From: Candidatus Latescibacterota bacterium
GTDB taxonomy: Bacteria > Latescibacterota > UBA2968 > GCA-2709665
NCBI GenBank assembly: GCA_965248435.1
Contig: OZ252100.1
Span: forward strand, 4,672,001 to 4,736,000
Length of the DNA: 64,000 nucleotides
Direction: 5' to 3'
Shown here: positions 37,636-60,828 of the stretch, piece by piece
Layout of the letters: each line of letters opens with the position of its first letter
How positions within the stretch are numbered: the stretch's first letter is position 1
Program-made: the position numbers and the translations under genes
Notes under the pieces: model-generated
Seen by the model: the letters and a program-made list of their open reading frames with translations, nothing else
Databases searched by the model: none
What the model was told of the DNA's origin: nothing

Positions 37636-37755
37636 AGACCAGGTACCGGGAATTCGAAACACGGGTACCGGGTACCGTCAAAATGAACGGGTTACCCAAT
37701 TGCGGATTGTGGATTGGGGATTGCGGAAGGGGTTCCCGCGAAGCGGACCACGGCT

Positions 37756-38736
37756 ATGCCCAATCCCAGAATAATTCTGTCGGGTTTTGCCGACGAGGGG
37801 CCGAAGAGCAAGCGCGCCGAAGAGCAGTTCATTATGATGCGCAGCCTCGGCCTCTCTCATTACACGATTCGGTTCATCGACGTCGGCAGCGGGGTGAAGA
37901 ACGTCCTGGATCTGACTGACGGAGAACTGGAACGTCTCCGCTCGTTGCAGGCCTCCTACGGGATTTCGGTGTCGAGTATCGGCTCTCCGATCGGGAAGGT
38001 GAAGCTGCTGGATGAAGAGGATGGGACCCAGAATCGATACGTGGATTTTGACACTTACCTGAACGATGATCTCCAGCGAACTATCGATCTGGCACACGCA
38101 CTCGATACGAAACTGATTCGAGGGTTTAGCTACTACCCACCACGGGGTGACGACCCCTGGAAGCACCTCGACAAAGCGGCGGAGCAGCTCGCGCGGATCG
38201 TGGAGCGCTGCGCAGGCTCTGGGCTTGTGTATGGCCTCGAAGTGGAGCTGGACCTGGTGGGGCGGGATGGGGATACGTTGATCGCGCTCTACGAGAAGGT
38301 GGGCAGCCCGAACATGTGCCTTATTCCGGATATTGGAAACCTGATCGCGATGGGGCATTCGTCCGACAGCGCATATGGACAGTACATGAAGATGAAGCCA
38401 GGTATCGGCTGGATCCATATCAAAGGGGCGACGGGCGAAATATCTGCGGACAGGGCGCACACTCGACATCTTCCCGTAGACGTTGGAGACGCCGCCCATG
38501 AACCTATCCTTCGTGATTTCAGGACGCTGGTCCCAGAGATCGAGGCACGGCTCATGGCATTCGGGGTCCCGGGCGTCTTCGTGGACCTCGAGCCACACGT
38601 GAAGGGAGGCGGACAGTTCGGAGGCGTGAGCGGTGTGGATGGATTTGGCGTGGCCTTCAGGGCGTTTTGTAGACTGTTGGATCATCTCGAATTCGATTAT
38701 CACTTAACGCAGCACGAGGACCTTGTAGATGGATGA
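37756..38736 (+). CDS. Sugar-phosphate isomerase/epimerase (xylose-isomerase-like TIM barrel)
   Basis: SGFADE, IGSPIGK, GLEVE, PDIGN, IHIK, DLEPH. Confidence 0.85.
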   Translation: MPNPRIILSGFADEGPKSKRAEEQFIMMRSLGLSHYTIRFIDVGSGVKNVLDLTDGELERLRSLQASYGISVSSIGSPIGKVKLLDEEDGTQNRYVDFDTYLNDDLQRTIDLAHALDTKLIRGFSYYPPRGDDPWKHLDKAAEQLARIVERCAGSGLVYGLEVELDLVGRDGDTLIALYEKVGSPNMCLIPDIGNLIAMGHSSDSAYGQYMKMKPGIGWIHIKGATGEISADRAHTRHLPVDVGDAAHEPILRDFRTLVPEIEARLMAFGVPGVFVDLEPHVKGGGQFGGVSGVDGFGVAFRAFCRLLDHLEFDYHLTQHEDLVDG

Positions 38737-38783: not shown

Positions 38784-39260
38784 GTGGTGAATCGGGTCAG
38801 GTGTGATATCGCTGTCGTGAAGATTATGCCAGAAGCAAGCTTTAAGCGTATCTTACTGCCCACGGCAGGAGGGCCCCACTCCGAGTTCGCCTCAGAGCTG
38901 CTTGGACCGATTGTCGAGGCGCAGGAGGCCGAGGTGACCGCCTGCTATGTCGTCCCGGAAGATGCAGGCGAAGACGTGGAAAGAGAGGCACACAGCTGGA
39001 TTCGACGCGCCCTCCGTCACGCGAATCTGGGCAGCGTGGAGCACCTGATCATCCGGTCCGGCTCCGTTCCGGCGGGGATTTCAAGGGCAGGATCCGACTA
39101 TGATCTGGTGGTGATGGGGGCTGCTCAGACCGGCCTTTTCAAGGAGCTGCTGTTCGGCGAGATTCCAGACCGGGTCGGGCGCTACACGCAGACTTCGGTC
39201 ATGCTTGTGAAACGCCGAGAGGGCCCTGCCAAGGCCTGGCTGCGCAGGATGTTTAGTTGA
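38784..39260 (+). CDS. Universal stress protein domain (possibly a C-terminal remnant)
   Basis: RILLPTAGGPHS, DLVVMGA, LFGEIPD; begins like a linker (RVRCDIAVVK). Confidence 0.65.
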   Translation: MVNRVRCDIAVVKIMPEASFKRILLPTAGGPHSEFASELLGPIVEAQEAEVTACYVVPEDAGEDVEREAHSWIRRALRHANLGSVEHLIIRSGSVPAGISRAGSDYDLVVMGAAQTGLFKELLFGEIPDRVGRYTQTSVMLVKRREGPAKAWLRRMFS

Positions 39261-39376: not shown

Positions 39377-40419
39377 ATGTCTGACAGGATCCGAATAGGG
39401 ATCATCGGAGCGGGCGGGATCTTCCGCAGAAAGCACCTTCCCGGGCTGGCGAAGATCGACGATGCAGAGGTCGTGGCGATCTGCAATCGAAGCGAGGAGA
39501 GCGGCCGTAAGATCGCCAGCGAGTTTGGACTGTCTGCCGAGATCATGGCCGATCCACACGCGTTGATCGCGCGGCAGGACGTTGACGCGGTGATGATCGG
39601 GACGTGGCCCTACAAGCATTGCGAGTTCGTGCTGGAGGCCCTGGACGCTGGCAAACACACGTTCACGCAGGCGCGGATGGCGATGGACCTCCGGGAGGCG
39701 AAGGCGATGTACGCCAGGGCAGAAGAGTCCGGCCTGGCGACACAGATCTGCCCCTCCCCGCTCGGCATTAAGGGTGACTCAACTCTGAGGCGATTGATTC
39801 GTGAGGGTTATCTAGGCAAGGTCTTCAACATCAACTACCGATCCCTGGACGATGACCTTTGTGATCCCGAAACGCCCCTGCACTGGCGTCAGGTGGCACG
39901 GTACTCAGGACTGAATGTGCTGGCGATGGGTATGCGGATGGAATGGGTGCACCGCTGGTTCGGCTACGCGAAGACGGTCACCGCGCAGGCGGAGACGTTT
40001 GTGAAGGAGCGACCGCTGGCGGAGGTAAAGGAGTGGGTCCGGTCGAGCGACCCGACACGGTGAACGTGCTGTGTGAGATGGAGAATGGGGCCTCAGCCGC
40101 GTTCCTCTTTTCCAGCGTTGCGCGGTTTCGAGGCGAGCAGCGCGTCGAGGCCTACGGGAGCGACGGGACTTTGATCTACGATATGATCCCACCGACGCTC
40201 TGGGGTGGGCGTCCGGGCGATAAGGGATTGTCCGAGATCCCCATCCCCGAGGAGGATGTCAGGACGTGGCGGGTGGAGCAGGATTTCATCGACGCGATCG
40301 GAACCGGGAGGCCCGTCGAATCCACCTTCTACGAAGGCCTGAAGTACATGGAGTTTACCGAGGCGGTGTTTCGGTCCGTGGAGACGGGCGGGACGGTGAG
40401 GTTGCCGCTGGTGGATTAA
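39377..40419 (+). CDS. Gfo/Idh/MocA oxidoreductase, apparent frameshift at ~40021
   Basis: ORFs 39377-40063 and 39943-40419 together align over full length with the paralog at 40540; one G appears to be missing in gcg-g(g)a-ggt. Confidence 0.85.
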
Positions 40420-46770: not shown

Positions 46771-47532
46771 TCAAAGGGGGATTGAGGGGGATTTATCGGG
46801 CGTTTTAGAAGGAAGGTCGGCGCTGCTGGAGAGGATGTGTTCCTTCATCGCGTGTTGGGCACGCTGGGCATCGCCACTTCGAATCGCTTGAAAGATCGTG
46901 TGGTGTTCCTGCAAGGACAGCTTTGTTCGCTTTACCACCTCGGGGATCGGGCGCGCCAGCGTTTCCTTGATCCACTCGTGGAGATAGCCCCTCGTCATAC
47001 TCAACAGGCTGTAAAGGATCGTGTTCTGCGTCGCCTGGGCGATCAGGAGGTGGAATTCCAGGTCGCATTCCAGGAATCGATCCGGATTCTCCAGCAGGTC
47101 TTCCATCGTTTCCAGGTTTTGCGCTACCATTGAGAGATTTTCCTTGGTGCAGCGTTGCGCTGCCAGGCTTGCATTCTCTGATTCCAGAATGAGCCGGGTT
47201 TCCATCAGATCCTGCACCCTTTTTGAATCCAGCAACAGACCCCACTGAAGCGTTTTTTCCATATACCGGCTGCTGTTGTTGGCGACAAAGGTGCCTTCTC
47301 CCACCCGGCCTTCCAGGATTCCCATTACCGAAAGAGAGCGCAGGGCCTCACGAAGGGACGTGCGTCCGACGCCGAATCTCTTGCAGAGGTCCCTTTCACC
47401 CGGAAGCCGCTCGCCGGGCTTGAGCACATCCCGGGAGATCAATTCGATGATCTGCTCCACGATCTCGTCACTCAGGGACCTGCGGTTGACGGGCCGCATC
47501 TCTTCGAAGGCGGCGTTTCTTCCAAGGGTCAT
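46771..47532 (-). CDS. FadR/GntR family transcriptional regulator
   Basis: LPGERDL...GVGRTSLREAL wHTH; FCD domain DLEFH, EHH. Confidence 0.93.
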   Translation of the reverse strand: MTLGRNAAFEEMRPVNRRSLSDEIVEQIIELISRDVLKPGERLPGERDLCKRFGVGRTSLREALRSLSVMGILEGRVGEGTFVANNSSRYMEKTLQWGLLLDSKRVQDLMETRLILESENASLAAQRCTKENLSMVAQNLETMEDLLENPDRFLECDLEFHLLIAQATQNTILYSLLSMTRGYLHEWIKETLARPIPEVVKRTKLSLQEHHTIFQAIRSGDAQRAQHAMKEHILSSSADLPSKTPDKSPSIPL

Positions 47533-47676
47533 CGGTAAGACCTCGATCCAGAGAACCTTTTCATATTACAGCATAATATGTTGTTATTAAACAATATATA
47601 TCAAAATGGGTGGGAGACCCGGCCGTAACGCTGAATTTTTCCTTGCAATTGAAGAAATTATGGTTATCATTATGCC

Positions 47677-47691
47677 GATGGTCTGACCATC
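47677..47691. promoter_or_regulatory. FadR-type operator
   Basis: gatggtctgaccatc palindrome (TGGT-N3-ACCA) just downstream of ttgcaa-16-tatcat, upstream of the corrinoid operon. Confidence 0.75.
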
Positions 47692-47756
47692 AACATAATA
47701 TAAGATTAGACAATTTCATCTCCGGTGTCAAGCGGAATCAAGTGGGAGGATAAGGC

Positions 47757-48395
47757 ATGGGACAGACCCTGGATATCGGGACTCGGGTCGAGCTGGTCCC
47801 GATGGACCCGCATTTTCACGAGATGACGATTTCGCTCTACCGTCAAGCAAGAGAGAGCGGACCGGCATATCTGCTGCATACCTACAGCAGATTGGAGGGG
47901 GCCGACGGTCGCCTCCAGGCTGTGAAGAAGGGGATGATTACCCTGGGAGGCGTGGAAGAAGATCCGGAAAGAGAGTTGCTGCGCTTTCCCTGCGGGACGG
48001 GACACGAATTCGCCTGCAGACGGCTTTTCCTGGAGTCGTGCAAATCGGACCCAAAAGGGCCGGTTGAGGTCCGACCTTTGACGACCCTGGATAAGAAGTC
48101 GGGCCTGGACATCCGAGTGGTCAGTCTGGGGGACGGCGCTTACCAGGTCACCGCAGACGGCGACCACGAGGACAAAGATCGTCGCGTTTCGGTCATCGTC
48201 AACGGCCTCAGGAAATTGGGTGAAATGCTGGGCGTAGAAGGGAGCCCTGACCAGGTGGCCTTTCCCTGCGGTCGCTCACACGATGCCCTGGTCGGCCTGC
48301 TGCTCGTACGGGCTCCAAACGTGCGCGCGATCGTCAGGGAGCAGGAGATGGCATCGGCTCGAGGCGTTCTGGCGGCTCCGAGTCAACAAGAATGA
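47757..48395 (+). CDS. Hypothetical protein with duplicated FPCGxxH motif
   Basis: FPCGTGH and FPCGRSH; first gene of the operon; RBS ggagg. Confidence 0.75.
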   Translation: MGQTLDIGTRVELVPMDPHFHEMTISLYRQARESGPAYLLHTYSRLEGADGRLQAVKKGMITLGGVEEDPERELLRFPCGTGHEFACRRLFLESCKSDPKGPVEVRPLTTLDKKSGLDIRVVSLGDGAYQVTADGDHEDKDRRVSVIVNGLRKLGEMLGVEGSPDQVAFPCGRSHDALVGLLLVRAPNVRAIVREQEMASARGVLAAPSQQE

Positions 48396-48443
48396 AGTTG
48401 CATTCAGAAGTGGAAAACAAGCCTAGCCTTTGAGGAGATAACC

Positions 48444-49493
48444 GTGGAAAATCAGGCAGTAGGACCCATGACCGGACGCGAGCGCGTCCTTGCAGCTCTG
48501 CGAAGAGAGCCGGTGGATCGTACAGCCGTCTGCAACCCGACGTCTGTCGCGACGGTCGAACTGATGGACCTGGTAGACGCCCCCTTCCCGCAGGCCAACC
48601 GGGAGCCTGAGCTGATGGCCAGGCTGGCCGCGACCGGATATACGGAACTGGGGTTCGATACGATCATGCCGGTCTTCACGATTATACAGGAGTCTTCTGC
48701 ACTGGGGTGCAGGATCCAGTGGGAACAAAAGGACAACTGGCCGACCGTCAAGATGCGGGAACCGATCTGGGAAGATGTGGATGATATCAAGATCCCGTCG
48801 GACTTTCTGACGCATCAGGATACGCAGTGTGTCCTGGAGGCGATCAAGATTCTCAAGAAGGAGTATGGGGATGAAGTGGCCGTGATCGGCAAGACGATGG
48901 GGCCCTGGTCGTTGGGTTATCACTGCTTCGGCGTCGAGCCCTTTCTCCTGATGTCACTGGATGATCCGGACAAGACTAAGGCCTGTCTGGACAGGATGAA
49001 GAAGGCGACGGTCGATTTCGGCGTGGCTCAGATCGAGGCAGGGGCAGATGCCCTGACGCTGCCCGATCACGCGACTGGTGACCTCGTCAGCGGCGAATAT
49101 TACGAACGGTATCTTCGTGAGCTACACATCGAGTTCGTAGATCAGATTCCGATTCCCTTGATCCTTCATATCTGCGGGAGGACCGTAGATCGGATGGAAT
49201 ACATCGCGCAGACCGGGATGGCTGCCTTTCACTACGATTCCAAAAACAAACCGGACGAGTCGATGGAAGTCATGAAGAATCGGATTTCTCTGGTCGGGAA
49301 CATCAACAATCCGGAGACGCTGTTCTCAAAAGGTCCGGATGTTGTGAGGCAGGAAGTCTACAAGAACCTGGATTCTGGCGTCCAGCTTGTCGGCCCGGAA
49401 TGCGCGATCCCGCTCCAGACCACAATCGAGAACTTGAAGGAGATTCCCAAAGCGGTGAGGGACTGGCACAAGGAGCACGTCTCCAAGAACTAG
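48444..49493 (+). CDS. MtaA/CmuA-family methyltransferase (UroD fold)
   Basis: MTGRERVLAALRREPVDR, LHICG (HxC) and GPEC Zn ligands. Confidence 0.88.
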   Translation: MENQAVGPMTGRERVLAALRREPVDRTAVCNPTSVATVELMDLVDAPFPQANREPELMARLAATGYTELGFDTIMPVFTIIQESSALGCRIQWEQKDNWPTVKMREPIWEDVDDIKIPSDFLTHQDTQCVLEAIKILKKEYGDEVAVIGKTMGPWSLGYHCFGVEPFLLMSLDDPDKTKACLDRMKKATVDFGVAQIEAGADALTLPDHATGDLVSGEYYERYLRELHIEFVDQIPIPLILHICGRTVDRMEYIAQTGMAAFHYDSKNKPDESMEVMKNRISLVGNINNPETLFSKGPDVVRQEVYKNLDSGVQLVGPECAIPLQTTIENLKEIPKAVRDWHKEHVSKN

Positions 49494-49527
49494 TGGATTC
49501 ATCCATCCCGGAGGGTTTGAGATCGCC

Positions 49528-50292
49528 ATGGCAGAACTAGCTGACATAAAAAACGAATTTATTCGGAACGAGGTCGAAGAGTTCATCGAGCGCCCTGATG
49601 AGATCGAGCGAATGGTCAATACCTTTGCAAGGGTCAGCCCGGAAATGCAGAACATCGCGGCCGCGCTGATAGACGGAGCCAACCATACTGTAGATCAGCT
49701 GACGAAAGAGGCGCTCGATGCGGGTACGGAGGCGTTGGAGGTCATGGACGACGGCCTCATAGCGGGGATGGGCATCGTGGGGATCAAGTTTCGCGAGAAT
49801 TTCATATTCGTCCCCGAGGTCCTGGCTTGCGCCCGTGCCATGAAGGCCGGGATGGCCTACATCGAGCCGATTCTGTCCGCTTCGGGGGTGGAGCCGATCG
49901 GAACCGTGATCATGGGTACGGTGAAGGGGGACCTGCACGACATCGGCAAGAATCTCTGCATTATGATGCTGAGGGGTTCCGGATTCGTCGTCCACGACCT
50001 CAGCGTAGACACCTCGGAGGATGAATTCATAGAGGCGGTGGAAGAACACAAGGCCCCGCTCATGGGGATGTCCGCCCTATTGACGACGACCATGCCCAAC
50101 ATGGGAAAGACAATCGAGGCATTTATCGACGCAGACCTTCGTGATGATGTGAAGATCATGGTGGGCGGCGCGCCGGTCACCCAGGAGTTTGCAGACGACA
50201 TGGGCGCTGATGGATATGGAAAAGATGCCATGGCGTGCGTGGAACTGGCCAAACGACTGATGGCAGAGCATAAAGCGGAAGTGGGATCGTAG
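49528..50292 (+). CDS. Cobalamin-binding corrinoid protein (MtbC/MetH cap + B12 domain)
   Basis: GDLHDIGKN (DxHxxG), SALLTTT, VGGAPVT. Confidence 0.95.
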   Translation: MAELADIKNEFIRNEVEEFIERPDEIERMVNTFARVSPEMQNIAAALIDGANHTVDQLTKEALDAGTEALEVMDDGLIAGMGIVGIKFRENFIFVPEVLACARAMKAGMAYIEPILSASGVEPIGTVIMGTVKGDLHDIGKNLCIMMLRGSGFVVHDLSVDTSEDEFIEAVEEHKAPLMGMSALLTTTMPNMGKTIEAFIDADLRDDVKIMVGGAPVTQEFADDMGADGYGKDAMACVELAKRLMAEHKAEVGS

Positions 50293-50601
50293 GTGAAAAA
50301 GATCGACAAGGAAGAATATCAGAAGCGGCTGGATAAAATCACCGAGCTGTTCTCGGACATGGTCCAGCACGCGGATGAATTGTCCACCCACCGGTGTCCT
50401 TATAAGAATCGGTTTGACGAGTGCACTGCGAAGTTCGGGTGCAGGAACCAGCGTAAACCCAGCGAGGATGCGAAACTGCTGCTCTGTGTAGGGGACGACA
50501 AACTGGATTACCGGAGCGCCTGGGAGACTGACCCGGCGGACGAAGCGGACATTTGGCTAAGGAATAAGCCGTCAGATGGGGACGATATCTCACGTCGGTG
50601 A
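50293..50601 (+). CDS. Small Cys-containing hypothetical protein
   Basis: RCPYKNRFDECTAKFGCRNQ...LC; abuts or overlaps both neighbours. Confidence 0.7.
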   Translation: MKKIDKEEYQKRLDKITELFSDMVQHADELSTHRCPYKNRFDECTAKFGCRNQRKPSEDAKLLLCVGDDKLDYRSAWETDPADEADIWLRNKPSDGDDISRR

Positions 50602-52225
50602 AACCCGTGAACTGACGCCCGGGAAGACGGTCTTCGACTATGCAGACGATCTTATCGTCCAGGTCCCGACTTCCTGCGGCAGAACCGGACACTGCCACGA
50701 GTGCGTCGTGGAAATCAAGAAGGGCATGGATGCGCTCTGCCCACGGACCGAGGCCGAGTCTTTCCTGAAGGAAGAATTCCGCCTGGCCTGCCAGGCAGAA
50801 ATCCAGGATATCGAGGCCGACGTCGAATTCTCACCGCTCCGCAGAACCCCCAAAATCCTCACGGTTTCAAACGAAAAAGCGGTAGAACTGGATCCCGTGG
50901 TCACTCGCCAGGGTGAATCCGTCTGTTATGACGGGGAAGTGATCGACAAGTTCCGTGGGCATATCTATGGCCTGGCGATCGATCTCGGCACTACGACTGT
51001 GGTCATGGATCTGATGGACCTGGAAACAGGCGAGAGCATCCACACGAGTTCGTTTCTGAATCCTCAGGCATTCGGGGGAAGCGATGTTATGCATCGCATA
51101 TCCTACGACGGCGGGGAATTCCGGGGCGAGCTCCAAAAGGCGATCGTGAGTACTGTGAACCGCGAGATTGAGGCGATGGGTGAAAGTCTCGGTTTCGTTC
51201 GCCAGGAGATCTACGAAGTCGTCGTCGTGGGGAACTCGACGATGCGCGATATCCTGTTCAAACTGGACGTCCAGAGCATCGGCCAAAGGCCCTATAAATC
51301 GACGATCGAGCACGAATATCTCGAAGGCAAACGCGAGACGACCTCGCTCCTTCAGGGCACGCGCCGGCTGGGCCTGCGCGCCAATCCGAAGGCGAAGGCA
51401 TACGGCTTGTCCCTTATCGCCAGCCACGTGGGGGGTGACGTGGCCGCGGATCTCGCGGCCATAGACATGGAGAAGCAGCGGGATGTCGTTATGCTGGTGG
51501 ATGTGGGAACGAACACAGAAGTCGTCCTCGGACACGCGGGCCGGATGATGGCGGCCTCGTGTCCGGCCGGACCCGCTTTTGAGGGCGGGCTCATCAAGTA
51601 CGGCATGCCCGGGTTCGAAGGGGCGATCGAGTCGATTCGGCTCGGAAAAGACAATCATTTCGACTATCAGACGATTGGAGATTTGGAACCGCAGGGGATT
51701 TGCGGGTCTGGGTTGATTGACCTGCTGGCGGAACTTCGACGCAGCGACGGCATGTCGCCGAAAGGCGTCTTTGCGGACAAGGCCTATGAACTGACCATCG
51801 TTCCCGACTACGGCATCACCTTCTCCCGGGAGGATGCGAGCAACCTCGCACAGGCAAAGGCGGCCAACTACTGCGGCCAGTTTATCGTGATGCGGAACTT
51901 TGGTGTGGATCCGTCGGAGATAAGCAGGCTCTATCTCGCGGGCGGGTTTGCAAACTATGTGGATGTTCCTAATGCGATCGAGATCGGTTTCCTGGCGCCG
52001 GTTCCAGAGGACCGGATTGTCAAAGTAGGGAACGCGGCCCTGCAGGGGGCGAGGGAGGTCCTGCTTTCGCGACGAAGAAGGGAGGCCATCGAGCGTCTTG
52101 TAAAAGAGATCGAACATATCGAGCTGGAGACGACGCCCGATTTTTTCGAGGTGTTCGTAGAAGCCTGTCAGTTCAAACCGATGCCGGAAAAACTCACACC
52201 GAGCGCAATGGCGGTGAGCAACTAG
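50576..52225 (+). CDS. ATP-dependent reductive activator of corrinoid proteins (RACo/RamA, ASKHA + 2Fe-2S)
   Basis: SCGRTGHCHEC..RLACQ; IDLGTTT; DVGTN; AGPAFEG; GICGSG. Confidence 0.92.
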   Translation: MGTISHVGETRELTPGKTVFDYADDLIVQVPTSCGRTGHCHECVVEIKKGMDALCPRTEAESFLKEEFRLACQAEIQDIEADVEFSPLRRTPKILTVSNEKAVELDPVVTRQGESVCYDGEVIDKFRGHIYGLAIDLGTTTVVMDLMDLETGESIHTSSFLNPQAFGGSDVMHRISYDGGEFRGELQKAIVSTVNREIEAMGESLGFVRQEIYEVVVVGNSTMRDILFKLDVQSIGQRPYKSTIEHEYLEGKRETTSLLQGTRRLGLRANPKAKAYGLSLIASHVGGDVAADLAAIDMEKQRDVVMLVDVGTNTEVVLGHAGRMMAASCPAGPAFEGGLIKYGMPGFEGAIESIRLGKDNHFDYQTIGDLEPQGICGSGLIDLLAELRRSDGMSPKGVFADKAYELTIVPDYGITFSREDASNLAQAKAANYCGQFIVMRNFGVDPSEISRLYLAGGFANYVDVPNAIEIGFLAPVPEDRIVKVGNAALQGAREVLLSRRRREAIERLVKEIEHIELETTPDFFEVFVEACQFKPMPEKLTPSAMAVSN

Positions 52226-52226
52226 A

Positions 52227-53831
52227 ATGGGCAACGCTCCAAAAACAATGCGGCCTAACGCAACGCCATGGTCCAAGCGGACGCTGCGCCATCTCCTGCA
52301 GGAGACGGACGAATTCATCACCTGCGTGGAACTCGTCACGTCACGCGGAATTATCACAGAGCGCCGTGGGCGGCGTGTTCTGGGGCTGGCACGCAGCCTC
52401 GCGGAGCATCCGAGAATCCACGGGTTAAGCATTACCGACAATCCGGGCGGGAACGCCATGCTGAGCGCAGATACACTGGGGACCGATCTGATCTCGCGCG
52501 GCCAGGAAGTGATTATTCATATCTCCTGCAAGGACTGGAACCGAAATGCGCTCCAGAGCCAGGGGTGGTCCATGGCCAGCAAGGGGTTCAACAATATCCT
52601 GACGTTGTCCGGCGACTACCCCATAGACGGCTATGAGGGTCTGGCGGGTGGGGTGTTCGATATCGACTCTGTCGGACTGCTGAAGATGCTTTCAGATATG
52701 AACGAGGGCCTGCAGGTCGGGGGAAACGGACGCGCCGCTGAAGTCCTGGAGCGAACGAAATTCTTCCTGGGCGCTGTGGTGAACAACCATAAGCTGCACG
52801 AACGGGAGGTCATGCCCCAGTACTTCAAGCTGGCAAAGAAGATCAAAACCGGAGCAGATTTCATCATCAATCAGATAGGATATGATTCCCGCAAGCAGGA
52901 TGAAATGATCAAGTACATGAAGTTTCACAATCTCAGTGTGCCCCTCATCGGAAACGTCTACGTGCTGAGCCGGCCGGCTGCCCGCTACTTCAACTCCGGG
53001 CGTATTCCAGGCGTGACGGTGACCGATGATTTGCTGACGGTCGCAGAAAAGCAGGGAAAGTCCAAAGACAAGGGGAAGGCGTTTTTCCTTGAATTCGCTG
53101 CGAAACAATGCGCCATCGCGAAAGGGCTTGGCTATCGGGGCATTTATCTCGGGGGCCAGCTCCGCTACAAAGACTATGAAGGGATTCTGGAGATCGCCGA
53201 CAGCTTTGGCGAGACAGACTGGAAGGGGTTTGCAAAGGAGATCCGGTTTCAGCTGCCCGGTGAGTTCTACTACTTTGAGCCCGACCCGGAGACAGATCTC
53301 AGTTCCGTCGAGGTCAACCGCGAGTACCTTCGTTCCAAGCGCCCGGAGGCCATGCGGGCATCCAGGCAGAGGATTCCCCTCAGCTACAAGCTGAATCGAA
53401 TCGTACACGACGAAGTATTCGAGCAGGAGAGCAAGGGGTTCAGCATCGGTCGAAAGGTGTCTGAGGCCATTTCGAATGCCGGAGACGGCTGGCGGAAGAT
53501 TGCGCACACTCTGGAGCAGGCGGTGAAGGGTCCGGCGTTCGACTGCTGGGACTGTGGAGACTGTTCCTTACCGGATATTGCGTATCTCTGCCCGGAGTCT
53601 CAGTGTGTCAAAAACCAGCGCAATGGACCTTGCGGAGGAACGCTGCAGGGCAAGTGCGAGATTGGAGAGAAAGAGTGCATTTGGGCCCGTGCGTATGAAC
53701 GGCTGAAGGCTTATGGGCAGGAAGAGGACATGCTGGACCGCCCGGTGGTGTTCAAAGACGGCTCACTTAAGGGCACCAGCGCCTGGTCAAATACCTTTTT
53801 GGAACGCGATCATCACGCGAAAGGGAAATGA
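52227..53831 (+). CDS. metF: Methylenetetrahydrofolate reductase with fused C-terminal MetV-like Cys-rich domain
   Basis: ITDNPGG, HISCKDWNR, LSGD, GADFIINQ; CWDCGDC...CPESQC..NGPCGG..C..ECIW. Confidence 0.85.
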   Translation: MGNAPKTMRPNATPWSKRTLRHLLQETDEFITCVELVTSRGIITERRGRRVLGLARSLAEHPRIHGLSITDNPGGNAMLSADTLGTDLISRGQEVIIHISCKDWNRNALQSQGWSMASKGFNNILTLSGDYPIDGYEGLAGGVFDIDSVGLLKMLSDMNEGLQVGGNGRAAEVLERTKFFLGAVVNNHKLHEREVMPQYFKLAKKIKTGADFIINQIGYDSRKQDEMIKYMKFHNLSVPLIGNVYVLSRPAARYFNSGRIPGVTVTDDLLTVAEKQGKSKDKGKAFFLEFAAKQCAIAKGLGYRGIYLGGQLRYKDYEGILEIADSFGETDWKGFAKEIRFQLPGEFYYFEPDPETDLSSVEVNREYLRSKRPEAMRASRQRIPLSYKLNRIVHDEVFEQESKGFSIGRKVSEAISNAGDGWRKIAHTLEQAVKGPAFDCWDCGDCSLPDIAYLCPESQCVKNQRNGPCGGTLQGKCEIGEKECIWARAYERLKAYGQEEDMLDRPVVFKDGSLKGTSAWSNTFLERDHHAKGK

Positions 53832-54835
53832 GGGCATTCCTGGAGAGACTGAAGGATCCCAAGCCCCTGCTGTATGACGGTGGTTTCGCCACGGAGCTAT
53901 TCCGTAGAAGGATAGAGCTTCCGAATTCCGCTGTTGCCAGCGTATCGCACCCGGACACAGTGGTAGACATCCACTCCAGCTACCTTGATGCCGGGTCCGA
54001 CGTGCTCGGGACCAACACCTTCGTGGCGTCGGTCCTTCATCTGGAGATGGCCGGGAAGGATCCGTCAGAGGCGGCCGAGATTGTAAAAAGCTCGGTGGAA
54101 CACGCAAGGCGGGCAATTGAGCGCGCCGAGAAGGGTGCTTACGTGGCCGGAGTGATCGGCCCCTCCCCTGGAGCGCTGGAGGCTGACAGCGGGGACACCG
54201 AATTTGGGATCCCAAATGTAAAAGCGCGCGATGCTCACGCGAGAGTTGCTGAGGCTCTCGCTGGCGCAGGCGTCGATTTTTTTGTTCTTGAAACCATGTT
54301 CTCCGCGAAGGAGGCAGCGATCGCCATAGATTCGATCAGGGAGATCGGTCTGCCTATCGCCGTGAATCTGACCTATAAGTACACGAAAGACCGGAAGACG
54401 GGTGAATGCGTTTATAGGACAGATTGGGGGCATTCCGCGGGGGACCTGCTGGACATTCTGAGCTCTGGAGAGTTCTCGGACGGAGATGACCTGCTCGAGG
54501 TTGTTCAGGTTCTTGGTCTGAATTGCGGCGCGGAACAGACACGCGAGGAACACACGGGGATGCCCTACGCGAAGATTGGGATCCAGCAGCTCCGCGATGC
54601 CATGAAGGAAAGGGGGATCAACACCAAACGGATGATGTGCTTTCCAAACGCCGGAATACCCGACCTGGACATGAAGTATAAAGTGACAACTTATTCTCAG
54701 ACGCCGGAGGTGATGGCCCCGCACCTGCCGGACCTGCTTGAAGAGGGCGCTTATTTCATCGGGGGGTGCTGTGGAACGCAACCCGCACATATCAGGACGT
54801 TCCGGGAGTCACTGGATGCGAACTGGAAGACTTGA
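53828..54835 (+). CDS. Stand-alone homocysteine S-methyltransferase domain (split MetH)
   Basis: YDGGFATEL, TNTF, LETM, GLNC, PNAG, IGGCCGT. Confidence 0.9.
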   Translation: MRAFLERLKDPKPLLYDGGFATELFRRRIELPNSAVASVSHPDTVVDIHSSYLDAGSDVLGTNTFVASVLHLEMAGKDPSEAAEIVKSSVEHARRAIERAEKGAYVAGVIGPSPGALEADSGDTEFGIPNVKARDAHARVAEALAGAGVDFFVLETMFSAKEAAIAIDSIREIGLPIAVNLTYKYTKDRKTGECVYRTDWGHSAGDLLDILSSGEFSDGDDLLEVVQVLGLNCGAEQTREEHTGMPYAKIGIQQLRDAMKERGINTKRMMCFPNAGIPDLDMKYKVTTYSQTPEVMAPHLPDLLEEGAYFIGGCCGTQPAHIRTFRESLDANWKT

Positions 54836-54844
54836 GGAGACTCG

Positions 54845-55882
54845 ATGAAGCTGAGCGGACTTGAAAGAGAATTCTTCGTGATTGGGGAAAACATCCATAC
54901 GACAAGGGTGCTGCTCAGGAAGGGGAAACTGATCGCGAACGATCCGGACGGCGATGACGCCGTTCGCTTCTACGACAACAACAAAAAGCGACGATATCTC
55001 AAGATTCCGGAGAAGGTAAAAAAGGCTCAAGATTTCCAGGAAGGTCGAGTGAAGCACATCAAAGTTGCGATAGATGCTGCGATGACGGGAGAGGAGCCCG
55101 AGGCGAGCATCGGTATGGACTACCTGAAGCGGCTCGTCAAGCGCCAGGTGGATGCAGGCGCAGACTTCCTGGACTTGAACGTAGATGAGATTTCCCTGAA
55201 AATCGAAGAGCAGAAGGCCGCCATAAAATGGCTGGTAGAGACCGTGGAGGAACTCTCTTCGGTTCCGCTGTCTATCGATTCCTCCAAGTCGGAGATCATC
55301 GAGGAGGGACTCAAAGCCTGCAGGGGCAAAGCAGGGCAGATGATGCTGAACTCGGCTTCCCTGGAGCGCGTGGATGCGCTGGACCTCGCAAAGCGGTTCA
55401 ACGCGAATGTCATCGTTACTGCGGCAGGCGCATCAGGGATGCCAGATGGAGAGGAGGAGCGGGTCACCAACGCCTCCAGTATGGTCGAGGCTGCGCTGGA
55501 GAGGGGCATTGCCATTCAGGATATCTTTATCGATCCGCTGGTGTTCCCGATCTCGGTGAACGATGAATTCGGAAACCACTGTTTCAAGGCCATACAAACC
55601 CTCAGAGGGCGGTTCGGGCCTGAGATTCACATTGCGGGCGGATTCAGCAACGTCTCTTTCGGAATTCCGAGCCGCCGCCTGGTGAACGACGTGTTCCTGA
55701 ACCTCGCCGTGGAAGCCGGGGCCGATAGCGGGATCATCGACCCCGTGACGAGCCATTTGGAAGAGGTCTTTACCCTGGACCGGGAAACCAAACCTTATCG
55801 GCTCGCTGAAGACATGCTTCTCGGCAGAGATCAATACTGCAAGAATTTCCTGATGGCTTATCGTAAGGGCGAACTGGAATGA
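54845..55882 (+). CDS. Pterin-binding methyl-THF:corrinoid methyltransferase (AcsE / MetH folate domain)
   Basis: IGENI, DLNVD, SIDSS, LNS, IDPL, SNVSFG. Confidence 0.9.
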   Translation: MKLSGLEREFFVIGENIHTTRVLLRKGKLIANDPDGDDAVRFYDNNKKRRYLKIPEKVKKAQDFQEGRVKHIKVAIDAAMTGEEPEASIGMDYLKRLVKRQVDAGADFLDLNVDEISLKIEEQKAAIKWLVETVEELSSVPLSIDSSKSEIIEEGLKACRGKAGQMMLNSASLERVDALDLAKRFNANVIVTAAGASGMPDGEEERVTNASSMVEAALERGIAIQDIFIDPLVFPISVNDEFGNHCFKAIQTLRGRFGPEIHIAGGFSNVSFGIPSRRLVNDVFLNLAVEAGADSGIIDPVTSHLEEVFTLDRETKPYRLAEDMLLGRDQYCKNFLMAYRKGELE

Positions 55883-55883
55883 T

Positions 55884-55978
55884 CGGCTACCGGGATAGGT
55901 AGATAGGCTACAGAGACCTGACGGTTTGGGGGCGACGCCTGCGTCGCCCCGAGAAATCAAAACACGGGTACCGGCTAC
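55884..55978. repeat. 95-bp composite repeat, copy B
   Basis: Direct repeat of 46645-46739. Confidence 0.92.
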
Positions 55979-56051
55979 TGCATCGCCGTGGATCGTGAAC
56001 CGTGGTTCAAAAATTCGACAGGAATCTCGGACTGATGAAGGGGTGCGCGAA

Positions 56052-56327
56052 ATGGCCGAGTATAAGGTACTCTACTGGAAGGGTATTCCCGCGCAGGTGA
56101 AGGTTTATGAGGGCAAAAAGTCCGTTTCGGGTAAGATGCCTGATCGTTTTCAAGAGGAGATCGATCAGATCGCCATGGAAGAAGGGCTCCAGCAGAGTGA
56201 GGCCTATCTGGACGAATGGCAATGGACCGAAAAGCTCGAACGTTCCGGGGATGCACAGACGGTACTGAGCCAACTGCTCCAGGAACTCGAATCCGAGTAC
56301 GATTCCAAGTCAGGGAAAAAGGAGTAA
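56052..56327 (+). CDS. 'Virulence factor' family small protein of the type found near split methionine synthase genes
   Basis: YWKGIPAQV...RFQEEIDQIAM...YLDEW signature. Confidence 0.75.
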   Translation: MAEYKVLYWKGIPAQVKVYEGKKSVSGKMPDRFQEEIDQIAMEEGLQQSEAYLDEWQWTEKLERSGDAQTVLSQLLQELESEYDSKSGKKE

Positions 56328-56620: not shown

Positions 56621-57673
56621 CTGGATTCAATGACTAAGTGCAACACTTGGACTTGAAGACTTCAGCTGGTGTTTTGAAGTTAAGACATTTTCTTGGTCGG
56701 TTGTTGATCCGGTTCTGAATTTTCTTTAACTCGTGTTTGCTGACCTTTGAGAAGTCTGTCTTCTTGGGGAGGTATCTGCGGACCAGACCGATAGCGTTTT
56801 CCACAGCGCCTCGCTCCCAGCTGTGGAACGGTTTGCAGAAATAGGATTTGGTGCCAAGCACCTCGTTGACCCGTTGATGTTGGCCGTTTTCGGATCCGTT
56901 GTCATATGTGATGCTCTTCCTCATGTGGGGAGGATGTCGCCCAAGGCGTCGATTAATCGCTTCGGCGACCTCCGAGGGTCCGTTCTTTGCCAGCTTAGCC
57001 AGGTGTAGGTATCTCGACGATCGCTCAAGACAAGCGCCAACGGCCTGTTTGCTCTCACGAGAGATGATGGTGTCGGATTCCCAGTGGCCAGGTTGTTTCC
57101 GTTTTTCGATGTAACGGGGACGTCGATCGATCGAAATACGGCCTGGAATGTGGCTTTCCCGGTGTTTTCGGGTATGCCACCGCGGCTTTCGTTTTTTGTG
57201 AGCTCGGGATAAGCAAGCAACCAGATCCCGCTGCTTGTGCACCTTTGGATCGTAGATATACTGGTAGATGGCTTCGTGGCTGATACCCGCGCTCGGACGC
57301 TCCTCGGGAAGCCTCCCAGCGATCAACTCGGGAGACCATCCTTGCTTGAGTTTGGTCTCGACATATCGCCGGATAACCGGATTCTTCAGCCGTTTCCGCT
57401 TGCCGGCCTCCCGCTTACGTTTCTCAGCCCTTCTGTGAGCCTGGAGGCCCGAGTAACTCTCAGCTATCGGGGACGGATTACGTTTCAACTCTCTTGAAAT
57501 CGTGCTGGCGCTCCGGTCAAGGGCCTTGGCAATATCTCTAAGGCTTGCACCAGTGGCTCGACAAAGCGCAATCTGCTCGCGTTCGTCTATCGTAAGATGC
57601 TTGTAATTGTTTCCCATACACTTAGGATAGGACAGTTGCTACCCTAAGTGTTGCACTTCCTTATTGAACTCGG
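56621..57673 (-). mobile_element. IS30-family insertion sequence (ends approximate)
   Basis: Inverted ends sharing ttcaat-N4-aagtgcaacactt at ~56621-56648 and ~57646-57673. Confidence 0.85.
56634..57617 (-). CDS. IS30-family transposase
   Basis: HLTIDER, STISRELKRN, WSPELIAG, GHWESD, TYDNGSE, SWERGAVEN, NRPRK. Confidence 0.96.
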   Translation of the reverse strand: MGNNYKHLTIDEREQIALCRATGASLRDIAKALDRSASTISRELKRNPSPIAESYSGLQAHRRAEKRKREAGKRKRLKNPVIRRYVETKLKQGWSPELIAGRLPEERPSAGISHEAIYQYIYDPKVHKQRDLVACLSRAHKKRKPRWHTRKHRESHIPGRISIDRRPRYIEKRKQPGHWESDTIISRESKQAVGACLERSSRYLHLAKLAKNGPSEVAEAINRRLGRHPPHMRKSITYDNGSENGQHQRVNEVLGTKSYFCKPFHSWERGAVENAIGLVRRYLPKKTDFSKVSKHELKKIQNRINNRPRKCLNFKTPAEVFKSKCCT

Positions 57674-58097: not shown

Positions 58098-58538
58098 ATG
58101 GCCACCATCAAACTGTTAGAGGTAGGACTTATCGAAAACGGGGACAAAAGGAACAAGCGGCCCGACTCCATAACTCGGCCCATCCATTCCCTACCCTGGC
58201 TCAAGGACATCGTTGGGCGGGACCGGGAGACCTTCGTGACCTTGCACCTGGACACCCGCAATTGCCCTATTGCGATGGAGGTGGTCAGTATCGGCACGCT
58301 GAATGGGTCGATGGTCCATCCAAGGGAGGTTTTCAAGGCGGCCATTTTGAACAACGCGGCCCAAATCATCCTGGCCCACAACCATCCGAGCGGTGATCCC
58401 ACACCGAGCCGGGAAGATATCGAATTGACAAAGCGGATGCGGGAGGCGGGCGAGCTCTTGGGGATCGAGGTTTTGGATCACCTGATCGTGACCGCTGACC
58501 AAGGCTTCTTCTCAATGAAAGAGGGTAACCTGTTTTGA
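58098..58538 (+). CDS. radC: RadC-like JAB domain protein (short, mobile-element type)
   Basis: VHPREVF, AHNHPSGDPTPSRED, VLDHLIV. Confidence 0.92.
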   Translation: MATIKLLEVGLIENGDKRNKRPDSITRPIHSLPWLKDIVGRDRETFVTLHLDTRNCPIAMEVVSIGTLNGSMVHPREVFKAAILNNAAQIILAHNHPSGDPTPSREDIELTKRMREAGELLGIEVLDHLIVTADQGFFSMKEGNLF

Positions 58539-59625: not shown

Positions 59626-60828
59626 TCAGTTTCCGGTTGATTGAACGGGGTCTGGTGCGATCACGGGCGTTTCCGTGAAGTACCCGGCTGCAACCCGGTA
59701 AACTGACCGGTGTCCGAACCGCGCCCACAGCTTCCGCAGCACGTAGACCAGCTTGGGGTTGTGCTCTTCTCGCTCCGCAAGCGCGCGTTCGGTGGAACTC
59801 TTCCACTCCCTGCCCACGCTCGCGCTCTCCACAGCATCGATCGAGTCCGCGTAGCGCGCGTGCAGATCGTCGAGACTTGCCTTCGTCGGAACGGCCTTCA
59901 GAGAGAACAGGACTCCGAGCATTGCTGTCCAGTAGCACTTGATGGCTTTTGACTGCTCATCGCGCGGTAGATGCCGAGCGATTTGTTCGACGGCGTGCAG
60001 GGATGTGACCAGGTGAAGGAGCACGAAGTCGCCGGGATTGCTCAGGTACAAGAGCATGACTGCGTAGTAGAGCTGCCCCCAGACCTCCTCCTGGCCGGCG
60101 TTCTCCATCCACAAGGGTGTGGTGTGGATGAGGGGGTGCCCTTCCGCGAGCACTCGGGCGATGTGTAGCTGCGCTCCGGTGTGCTCGAGCACTGGCTGGA
60201 ATCCGGCAGCGACACTGAGCTCCGGGCTGCTGAGCGTGTCATCGACCCAACTCGAGAGAGCTTGTCTGTCGCGGTCCCACTCGGCAGCGATTCGCTGCAT
60301 CGAATTCAACGGCGTGCGGTCAGCGGCTAGAGGCTTCGATTTGGAGAAGGTCCGCTCGGGATAGCACGACACGTAGGAGAACGCGAGGTACGCAAGGCCC
60401 TCGATGGTCATCCCCCTGTGGCCTGCGTCCAAGGCCCAGCCTAGGTGAATCGTTCCGTGGAGGAGTGCCCCCACGCACCCCCGAAGAAGCTCCGGAACGT
60501 AGACCTTGAGGGTCTGCTCGAGGCCAAGGGTCTCGACACGCTCCTCGAAGAAGCGGCAGAGAGAAGTGAACTGCTCGTGCTTCCCGAGGAAGTCTCTCCA
60601 GTTCTCTTCCGTGAGTTGGATGTCCGATTGCTTGGGAGGTTCCAGACCGAACCCGTAGGTAGTTCTCGCGTACTCCTCGACATATGCCGCGATGTCTTCA
60701 GCGGGCGCGCCTAGCCCGTTCAAGGCGATGACAGCGTGCTTGGCGTGGTTGGAAAGGTAGCCGTGGAACTCGATGTGAAAGGACTTGTCGCCCAGCATCT
60801 CGTCAACGCGGGTGTTGTGCTCGGTCAT
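59626..60828 (-). CDS. Questin oxidase-like (DUF4243) protein
   Basis: LSNHAKH, LHGTIHLGWA, DFVLLHLVTSLHA, EHNPK. Confidence 0.8.
   Translation of the reverse strand: MTEHNTRVDEMLGDKSFHIEFHGYLSNHAKHAVIALNGLGAPAEDIAAYVEEYARTTYGFGLEPPKQSDIQLTEENWRDFLGKHEQFTSLCRFFEERVETLGLEQTLKVYVPELLRGCVGALLHGTIHLGWALDAGHRGMTIEGLAYLAFSYVSCYPERTFSKSKPLAADRTPLNSMQRIAAEWDRDRQALSSWVDDTLSSPELSVAAGFQPVLEHTGAQLHIARVLAEGHPLIHTTPLWMENAGQEEVWGQLYYAVMLLYLSNPGDFVLLHLVTSLHAVEQIARHLPRDEQSKAIKCYWTAMLGVLFSLKAVPTKASLDDLHARYADSIDAVESASVGREWKSSTERALAEREEHNPKLVYVLRKLWARFGHRSVYRVAAGYFTETPVIAPDPVQSTGN

Follow-up and report, generated by a model that had tools for sequence, protein, structure and literature searches.

A repressor-controlled operon of Candidatus Latescibacterota for B12-dependent methyl shuttling combines a split methionine synthase with an MtaA-type module

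The stretch of DNA studied here, a window of 64 kb (contig positions 4672001-4736000) from the genome of a Candidatus Latescibacterota bacterium (5.67 Mb in two contigs, 97.5% complete), carries a repressor-controlled operon for B12-dependent methyl shuttling, in which a split methionine synthase is joined to an MtaA-type module. The hub of this operon is of a kind described recently, while its substrate module, an MtaA-like enzyme locked to a partner of no known family that is called hyp212 here, is uncharacterised. It is proposed, with a probability of about one half, that the operon demethylates an S- or Se-methyl compound and feeds the methyl groups into methionine and folate. Uncultured bacteria from the sea and from sponges carry the system widely, and sequencing runs of seawater and marine metagenomes, made in several studies, contain the stretch itself or close relatives of it. 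Literature searches, whose reach did not include supplementary files, returned no published description of this gene cluster.

The enzyme at the centre of the substrate module passed the cut-offs of the MtaA/CmuA family (TIGR01463, 255.1 bits against 235.4; PRK06252, 259.5 against 244) and remained below those of the equivalog models for MtaA (NF040654, 237.2 against 400 bits) and MtbA (200.3 against 600 bits). Its residues 9-337 aligned end to end with Methanosarcina MtaA (4AY7, E 1e-52), the closest solved relative, and the next solved proteins were uroporphyrinogen decarboxylases at E 1e-13 or weaker. The three residues of the H-x-C...C zinc motif, H242, C244 and C320, were invariant in all 42 orthologues compared. 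In the alignment with 4AY7 they fall on its LHICG and P-x-C segments, the corresponding residues of which we take to be the zinc ligands of MtaA.

Within this superfamily, a His-Cys-Cys set has been described as the mark of S/Se-methyltransferases, whereas O-demethylases swap one or both Cys (PMC10418091, a preprint). In the MtaA-like enzyme both Cys are kept throughout, being neither lost nor replaced by a carboxylate as in O-demethylases. Selenide methylation is reported in the same preprint for one bacterial MtaA-like enzyme (Kountz and Balskus, PMC10418091), MtpA is described as an MtaA-family enzyme specific for methylmercaptopropionate/mercaptopropionate (bioRxiv 10.1101/548461), and CdmB, a solved haloalkane enzyme, as zinc-free with an aromatic pocket (PMC13222342). 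As regards the kind of METHYLTRANSFERASE, the zinc ligands and the resemblance to MtaA place the MtaA-like enzyme in the thiol/thioether (or selenol) branch; the S/Se nature of the substrate is thereby inferred, more weakly than the direction of methyl flow discussed below, and the same zinc site makes an O-methyl substrate unlikely.

Relatives of the MtaA-like enzyme were collected from a protein collection clustered at 90% identity, which gave 3481 of them at E <= 0.001, the best 120 being 83-99% identical. In a set of species-representative genomes, at least 528 stretches encode such a relative; the locus counts given below refer to the best 80 of these, each taken with about 10 kb on either side and some of them ending at contig ends. 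The 80 loci bear the labels Poribacteria, Latescibacterota, Gemmatimonadota, Acidobacteriota, Opitutales and others. The closest relative among the fetched loci, labelled Candidatus Latescibacterota, has an MtaA-like enzyme 93% identical and the same gene order, and a same-genus genome of 4.1 Mb in one contig is listed.

The neighbourhood search that the first-pass annotation had proposed for the gene encoding hyp212 found this gene directly before that of the MtaA-like enzyme in 80 of 80 loci. The protein has no Pfam or NCBIfam match, and its relatives fall into 1038 clusters, all of them unnamed or 'hypothetical'. Since a single-sequence model reached a predicted local distance difference test (pLDDT) of only 36, a model from a 43-row alignment was used, with a pLDDT of 87.3 and a predicted template modelling score (pTM) of 0.84. 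This model shows two alpha/beta repeats followed by a long C-terminal helix. A fold search gave nothing beyond background (Foldseek, best E 0.08; VIA-align, best Z 6.7 over 91 residues at a root-mean-square deviation of 3.1), and no usable match was found in the ESM Atlas. Conservation is strongest at the C-terminal tail, where R202, G203, L205, P208, S209 and Q211 are invariant; conservation of 90% or more, short of invariance, is seen at C79, H83, C95, C171 and H175.

Complex models of the MtaA-like enzyme with hyp212 scored 0.85, 0.01 and 0.87 in three runs (median 0.85), compared with 0.00 for the best of three controls. In the calibration of this score, 58 of 80 solved complexes attained the mark, as did 2 of 110 mismatched pairs; for the alignments built here these counts are a rough guide. 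Contact agreement between runs was at least 11%, and the partner pLDDT at least 77. The predicted interface joins residues 2-26, 42-46 and 200-206 of hyp212 to residues 34-47, 95-101, 289-297 and 320-332 of the MtaA-like enzyme, which corresponds to the mouth of the barrel, beside the zinc ligand C320. Invariant residues occur on both sides of it, such as 320-325 of the MtaA-like enzyme and R202/G203/L205 of hyp212. These predictions support the binding of hyp212 to the MtaA-like enzyme.

A natural fusion of hyp212 with MtaA had been suspected from long open frames, and a stop codon was found between the two genes in all five loci checked. A distant hyp212 homologue, 32% identical, occurs in two genomes of the same phylum (L127:9820-10455 (-) and L128), directly downstream of a gamma-glutamyltranspeptidase gene and with no MtaA-like gene within 10 kb; it is too uninformative to be used.

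All ten genes of the first-pass annotation were recovered at their coordinates with their domains by Pfam and NCBIfam (Table 1). The spacing between successive genes, taken from the coordinates, ranges from -26 to +48 nt, which fits a single operon. The corrinoid protein carries the His-on motif DLHDIG (DxHxxG) at residues 135-140, and its best NCBIfam model was MtgC_2 at 197.9 bits, half of the cut-off of 370. Eight Cys lie within residues 440-484 of the MetF-MetV fusion. The homocysteine methyltransferase possesses Cys233 and Cys314-Cys315, presumably its zinc ligands, and the pterin-binding methyltransferase scored 204.8 bits with PRK07535 (cut-off 259). The domain of the PF13769 open reading frame (ORF) begins at residue 50, so that the ATG at 56052 is the likelier start; the protein is found in most full operons and adjoins the homocysteine methyltransferase in smaller cassettes, and a literature search on PF13769 returned nothing. 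The RACo protein is the sole RACo_C_ter match in the genome. Two absences noted at first were borne out: no Rfam family reached its gathering score in the 64-kb window, so no S-adenosylmethionine (SAM) or B12 riboswitch is present there, and MttB/MtgB (PF06253) had 0 matches across the whole genome at its 97.5% completeness.

Table 1. Features of the operon, its control region and the upstream enzyme array (positions in the window)
Feature	Position	Strand	Family match or basis
Xylose-isomerase-like barrel	37714-38736		array gene
Stand-alone Usp	38784-39260		array gene
GntR + FCD regulator	46771-47532	-	PF00392 + PF07729; divergent from operon
Sigma-70-like promoter candidate TTGCAA-16-TATCAT	47643-47670	+	consensus scan only
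Palindromic operator GATGGTCTGACCATC, FadR-subfamily GntR type, predicted	47677-47691	.	sequence and orthologous intergenic regions
hyp212, 212-aa protein	47757-48395	+	no family match
MtaA/CmuA-family zinc corrinoid methyltransferase, UroD fold	48444-49493	+	TIGR01463, PRK06252
Corrinoid (B12-binding) protein, MtgC/MtaC/MetH-type	49528-50292	+	PF02607 (B12-binding_2) + PF02310 (B12-binding)
hyp102, Cys-rich N-terminal RACo module as separate ORF	50293-50601	+	no family match; four Cys
RACo/RamA-type ATP-dependent reductive activator	50576-52225	+	Fer2 (2Fe-2S, PF00111) + middle PF17651 + ASKHA PF14574
Methylenetetrahydrofolate reductase (MTHFR) fused to MetV-type Cys-rich C-terminal domain	52227-53831	+	PF02219 weak (39 bits) + PF12225/DUF5981
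Stand-alone homocysteine methyltransferase, MetH module 1 / MtgE-like	53828-54835	+	PF02574, 174.9 bits
Stand-alone pterin-binding methyl-tetrahydrofolate:corrinoid methyltransferase, MtgD/CmuB/AcsE-like	54845-55882	+	PF00809
PF13769 'Virulence_fact' small protein	55926-56327	+	70.7 bits

Two hypothetical proteins with Cys motifs had been reported in the operon. The one encoded upstream of the MtaA-like gene, hyp212, indeed remains without a family, whereas the second, hyp102, proved to be a detachable N-terminal module of RACo. Its ORF overlaps that of RACo by 26 nt in a different frame. In the Opitutales cassette (L063), a fused protein aligns through residues 1-94 with hyp102 (70.5%) and through residues 101-635 with RACo (73.7%), in successive frames of the window. 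The Cys module and RACo are both present in 45 of the 80 loci; counted by frame and stops, they are fused in frame in 24 of these and split in 21.

Control of the operon was ascribed at first to a FadR regulator with a FadR-type operator. A divergent FCD/GntR gene and an operator are there, whereas FadR proper is not supported: the top NCBIfam models are of the NanR, LldR and PdhR type (FCD), all far below their cut-offs. The combination of a GntR helix-turn-helix, an FCD domain and a TGGT-N3-ACCA-type palindrome at the promoter is that of the FadR subfamily, with binding predicted only. A candidate -10 element directly precedes the operator. The exact sequence ATGGTCWGACCAT occurs once in the window, at the site before the operon, and ATGGTNNNACCAT has two copies in the 5.67-Mb genome, the operator being one of them. 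When up to two mismatches were allowed, five matches were found in the window against 1.17 expected, the others not lying at promoters of the enzyme array upstream. Of the 80 loci, 41 have the GntR gene divergently placed before hyp212, and among 36 orthologous GntR-hyp212 intergenic regions, drawn from several phyla, 33 retain a site of the (T/A)GGTC(A/T)GACCAT type. There is thus good comparative support for a predicted, dedicated repressor-operator pair.

Across the 80 loci the rest of the system is present in varying extent. The corrinoid protein adjoins the MtaA-like enzyme in 49 loci, and in all 49 loci with both the two are separate genes, with no fusion of the CmuA kind. MetF-MetV was found in 37, the pterin-binding methyltransferase in 33 and the homocysteine methyltransferase in 24. 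Identity to the window proteins is 84-93% for the MtaA-like enzyme, 81-95% for the corrinoid protein, 68-88% for RACo, 65-86% for MetF-MetV, 59-85% for the pterin-binding methyltransferase, 59-86% for the homocysteine methyltransferase and 50-79% for hyp212. The hyp212-MtaA pair stands alone in 31 loci, almost all of them with a Poribacteria label, where it lies next to BamB-like and beta-lactamase-like genes, between mraW-ftsL-PBP cell-division and Rieske/cytochrome b genes, or among IMPDH genes. In five of five such genomes tested, a corrinoid protein (79-85% identical) followed by the Cys module and RACo is encoded elsewhere; pair and hub therefore form one system that does not require contiguity.

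Several other genes accompany the operon in its relatives. Eleven Poribacteria operons (e.g. L035:14872-15669) have a PhyH-family Fe/2-oxoglutarate dioxygenase gene between those for RACo and MetF-MetV, another such gene lies near the Opitutales cassette (L063:16960-17841), an Ldh_2 dehydrogenase gene is found downstream of the operon in eight Poribacteria loci, and epimerase-family genes lie upstream of Poribacteria operons. In the window, the operon is directly followed by an IS30-like transposase gene (HTH_38 + rve, 56634-57617 (-)), beyond which are a RadC-like JAB gene (58098-58538) and a questin-oxidase-like gene (59626-60828 (-)); the downstream region looks like a variable one that ends synteny.

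The direction of methyl flow was approached through four loci (L062, L063, L084 and L105) which hold a minimal cassette made of the homocysteine methyltransferase, the PF13769 protein, hyp212, the MtaA-like enzyme, the corrinoid protein and RACo, with no pterin-binding methyltransferase or MetF within 10 kb. A search of these four genomes, with a single protein query for each, found no orthologue of the pterin-binding methyltransferase of the operon type; the best matches were 29-33% identical and mostly lay within MetH-length frames of 1038-1245 aa. Since the corrinoid protein of a minimal cassette has two partners only, and methylation of homocysteine is the favourable exit, the MtaA-like/hyp212 pair would be the loading (donor) side. 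These cassettes without a pterin module thus argue that the MtaA module is on the methyl-donor side, and their net reaction would be X-S-CH3 + homocysteine -> X-SH + methionine.

The following mechanism is proposed on these grounds. The corrinoid protein would be held in its Co(I) state by the RACo activase with its extra Cys-rich N-terminal module, and would be shared by three methyltransferases. The MtaA/CmuA-type His-Cys-Cys zinc enzyme would act in complex with hyp212, taking the place of a substrate-specific MtgB, and would most likely demethylate a small S-methyl (or Se-methyl) compound. From the corrinoid protein the methyl group would then pass either to homocysteine, the homocysteine-binding methyltransferase forming methionine, or to folate, the pterin-binding methyltransferase swapping it with tetrahydrofolate and the dedicated MetF-MetV linking methyl- and methylene-tetrahydrofolate. 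The whole would be controlled by the FCD/GntR repressor acting on one conserved palindrome over the promoter. Carboxylates are the usual ligands of FCD domains, often sugar acids. Because the regulator is of this type, the substrate may itself be a carboxylate, for example methylmercaptopropionate.

That methyl groups reach both methionine and folate, as had been surmised for this operon, agrees with the logic of the MtgBCDE hub, for which it was shown genetically in Ruegeria. In Ruegeria pomeroyi, MtgC and MtgD are reported to be needed for methionine synthesis, together with MtgE, and for glycine betaine demethylation, together with MtgB; the hub is accompanied by an induced extra MetF2 and a RamA-type activase, and MetH is described as absent from about 70% of the carrier genomes (Mausz et al. 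2025, PMC12478193). Since the genome of the window has no MttB/MtgB, the MtaA-like enzyme with hyp212 is the only other candidate for a substrate module.

A number of points weigh against demethylation of an S- or Se-methyl compound. Methylation of Co(I) by a thioether is thermodynamically unfavourable, as stated for MtpA (10.1101/548461), and onward transfer of a thioether methyl to folate would be uphill, the favourable reaction being the methylation of a thiol by methyl-tetrahydrofolate. The argument from the minimal cassettes comes from four loci and one query per genome; one of these genomes had no pterin match at all, and another had a distant 367-aa frame of 33% identity. The system is single-copy and near-universal in the class of the window (122 of 131 genomes), a distribution more typical of housekeeping genes than of catabolism in a special niche. 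One preprint is the source of the zinc-ligand rule, which is correlative, and CmuA, a methyl-halide enzyme, shares the NCBIfam family of the MtaA-like enzyme. One of the three complex runs scored 0.01. No match to the methanethiol oxidase SBP56 was found in the genome, and the search of sequencing runs for the stretch listed no RNA run. Lastly, genes of sugar type (GFO, HAD, barrel and APC permease) are syntenic with the operon in 16 of the 80 loci, under two phylum labels.

A more specific form of the proposal, which is put forward tentatively and considered doubtful, is that the MtaA-like enzyme with hyp212 could be the missing cobalamin-dependent demethylase of methylated S/Se compounds in aerobic marine bacteria, handing methyl groups straight to homocysteine for a folate-independent synthesis of methionine and, where the pterin and MetF modules are present, also to folate-linked C1 oxidation. 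A cobalamin-dependent dimethyl sulfide methyltransferase has been postulated for aerobic dimethyl sulfide degraders and was described as still unidentified in 2019 (PMC6548844). Under this proposal the candidate compounds may be methylmercaptopropionate, dimethyl sulfide, methanethiol and methylselenides. A SelD match was found in the genome (contig 1062705-1063625 (-); 371.7 bits, cut-off 125) with one in-frame TGA; this SelD is probably selenocysteine-containing, so that the organism would use selenium. A role in selenium salvage is possible since SelD is encoded.

The same parts can be read in the opposite direction, on the acceptor side, with MtaA-like/hyp212 methylating a thiol, sulfide or selenide with groups that come from methyl-tetrahydrofolate by way of the pterin module and the corrinoid protein, the operon being a branched thiol methylase and methionine synthase dependent on methyl-tetrahydrofolate. 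This is the favourable direction for MtaA-type enzymes, and MtpA is reported to be robust in it (10.1101/548461); the operon also has its own MetF and pterin module, and its near-universal single copy in the class fits a housekeeping role. In the minimal cassettes, however, which hold neither pterin nor MetF module, such a scheme would give the corrinoid protein two acceptors but nothing to load it. By analogy with Ruegeria, where MetF2 is such a marker (PMC12478193), a dedicated additional MetF points to methyl oxidation, and another MTHFR exists in the genome in the form of a YitJ-type protein (homocysteine methyltransferase/MTHFR, 697.5 bits, cut-off 453). Flow towards an acceptor is consequently regarded as rather unlikely.

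The alternative named in the first-pass annotation was a split CmuA-like pathway for methyl halides, in which the MtaA-like enzyme and the corrinoid protein would be a CmuA cut in two, the pterin-binding methyltransferase CmuB and MetF-MetV MetF2, the substrate being a methyl halide (chloride, bromide or iodide) present in seawater or sponges. In CmuA the methyltransferase domain precedes the corrinoid domain, and the gene order of the operon fits this order. The MtaA/CmuA family cut-off was passed, the carriers are marine, and marine MtgC-type corrinoid proteins have been placed near CmuA (PMC12478193). Nevertheless, the solved haloalkane enzyme CdmB has no zinc and its pocket is aromatic (PMC13222342), and a Pfam scan of the operon showed no CmuC-like second gene and no folD/purU. 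A regulator of the FCD/GntR family would moreover be expected to sense a carboxylate and not a halomethane. A methyl-halide pathway is therefore judged unlikely. A tblastn search of a plasmid collection for CmuA found none, with UroD-like matches only, at 23-27% identity.

It was also considered that the operon might be no more than a methionine synthase, as the first-pass annotation had allowed in supposing that it could be simply the genome's only, constitutive one; MtaA-like/hyp212 would then be a second or alternative methyltransferase for homocysteine (or a related compound) with no separate substrate. The genome encodes no full-length MetH, and the sole MetH-type B12 and pterin modules in it are those of this operon; no TIGR02082 match in the genome spans the reactivation domain. 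Full-length MetE is likewise absent from the genome, which holds only short MetE-like paralogues. The operon consequently probably serves methionine synthesis in this genome, and a split MetH with a RamA-like activase is described as essential for making methionine in Phaeobacter and Ruegeria (PMC5764234; PMC12478193).

The distribution of MetH across the phylum was examined in a census of 168 genomes, in which MetH was scored at E <= 1e-150; related genomes being non-independent, the counts are descriptive and not tests. Over the whole phylum hyp212 was found in 125 of 168 genomes and MetH over the cut-off in 60. For hyp212 and MetH respectively, the counts were 21/21 and 6/21 in family f1, 30/31 and 30/31 in family f2, 3/3 and 2/3 in family f3, and 68/76 and 23/76 in family f4; genus g11 had 20/21 and 21/21, and genus g25 31/31 and 0/31. 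Retention of the system thus does not follow the absence of a full-length MetH. The supposition of an only methionine synthase is half true: no full-length MetH exists here, but relatives keep the system with or without one. Coexistence with MetH in genus g11 and in three of five Poribacteria genomes tested, a PF02574 homocysteine module already present in the operon, minimal cassettes without any folate side, and a ligand-sensing repressor, which would be odd for a sole methionine synthase, together make a role in methionine synthesis alone quite unlikely.

Other enzymes of the genome may draw on the same hub. At least five short MetE-like 'core' paralogues of 351-397 aa, all below equivalog cut-offs, are encoded (e.g. 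contig positions 484762-485817, 3503854-3504951 and 5184730-5185812), as are two weak MtaA/CmuA-like paralogues (3025395-3026450 and 3919168-3920223); some of these could be further clients of the single corrinoid protein. A 597-aa protein (contig 2564216-2566009) combines a domain like homocysteine S-methyltransferase with one of the class I SAM-methyltransferase type, and gives a weak match to CpaM, a methyltransferase associated with corrinoid proteins.

Upstream of the regulator, the enzyme array reported at first is real and comprises a xylose-isomerase-like TIM barrel, two GFO/IDH/MocA genes, four DHDPS-family genes and one Cof-type HAD gene. The array forms a separate unit that runs towards the regulator gene's 3' end and has no copy of the operator. 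Its first GFO/IDH/MocA gene (39377-40419) is split over two frames with a switch near 40024: the intact 347-aa orthologue of the same-genus locus L028 aligns through residues 16-216 in one frame of the window and through residues 217-347 in another, the split being a frameshift or an assembly error. The stand-alone Usp gene occupies the place of a 761-aa APC permease fused to two Usp domains in related Latescibacterota loci, and may be a remnant of such a fusion gene.

GFO and HAD genes lie upstream of the regulator in 16 of the 80 loci (14 with Latescibacterota and 2 with Gemmatimonadota labels), and these relatives also carry the barrel and the APC permease-Usp fusion; DHDPS genes were found in one locus only, L028. 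The sugar link thus holds for a minority of the loci only. Genes of the GFO and xylose-isomerase-like kinds abound in these phyla, and a functional link between array and operon is possible but unlikely. B12-dependent O-demethylation of a methylated sugar or sugar acid, the product of which would be degraded by the neighbouring dehydrogenases, aldolases and phosphatase, had been favoured in the first-pass annotation and has on its side this synteny, the sugar acids often sensed by FCD regulators and the PhyH, Ldh_2 and epimerase genes of Poribacteria operons, but it is very unlikely in view of the invariant His-Cys-Cys set in 42 of 42 orthologues and the closeness to MtaA of an enzyme whose O-demethylating relatives replace Cys ligands (PMC10418091), the single locus with DHDPS genes, the 31 pairs among housekeeping genes and an operator found solely at the operon promoter.

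Taken together, demethylation of an S- or Se-methyl compound by the MtaA-like/hyp212 module, with methyl groups leaving to homocysteine and folate, is the reading that we prefer. A split, RACo-activated hub serving both methionine synthesis and osmolyte demethylation was first shown in roseobacters in 2025, and the operon of the window shows this hub, equipped with another substrate module, in further phyla that live in the sea or in sponges and are for the most part uncultured. Identification of the substrate would supply the marine cycle of methyl-sulfur (or methyl-selenium, or methyl-halide) with a further route that depends on B12, would explain the cobalamin need of these lineages and would give a function to about a thousand 'hypothetical proteins', the 1038 clusters of hyp212 relatives.

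Among known systems, the operon most resembles the MtgBCDE/MetF2/RamA hub of Ruegeria and the three-part split MetH of Phaeobacter inhibens, in which the corrinoid protein, the pterin-binding methyltransferase and the homocysteine methyltransferase are likewise described as separate (PMC12478193, PMC5764234). A likeness to split MetH activated by RACo, already remarked on at first, is upheld by the operon layout: PF02574, PF00809 and PF02607+PF02310 stand in separate proteins and a RamA/RACo activase replaces the AdoMet domain. An extra MetF, a frequent absence of MetH and aerobic marine carriers are further common traits according to the same reports. Unlike that hub, the genome of the window lacks MtgB of the MttB family and has an MtaA/CmuA-type zinc enzyme with hyp212 instead; a single operon, controlled by an FCD/GntR repressor, contains all the parts, among them a MetF with a MetV-type domain attached, a RACo with an extra Cys-rich module and an additional PF13769 protein.

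With the methanogen enzymes MtaA, MtbA, MtsA and MtpA, the MtaA-like enzyme shares the UroD fold, the H-x-C...C motif and a cognate corrinoid protein with activase; unlike these coenzyme M methyltransferases it is bacterial, coupled to folate and homocysteine, and has an obligate non-homologous partner. Type 1 mlp clusters have also been proposed to act in methyl-S/Se metabolism (PMC10418091). These clusters are described there as having two or three Mlp paralogues, at least Mlp2 and Mlp3, and no folate methyltransferase, and as occurring in strict anaerobes only (PMC10418091), whereas the operon of the window has one MtaA-like gene, hyp212 and the pterin, homocysteine and MetF modules, so that it does not belong to that type.

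The cmu pathway (CmuA, CmuB, MetF2) and the Odm/Vdm/Mtv/Mto systems have in common with the operon a UroD-fold first methyltransferase (MT1), a corrinoid carrier, a pterin-dependent second methyltransferase and MetF, and the O-demethylase systems share its activase as well. CmuA is a fusion of methyltransferase and corrinoid protein, unlike the two genes of the window, and neither the cmu pathway nor the O-demethylases have a homocysteine module or hyp212. The MT1 of O-demethylases is described as devoid of the Cys-Cys ligands (PMC10418091), whereas the MtaA-like enzyme of the window has both Cys.

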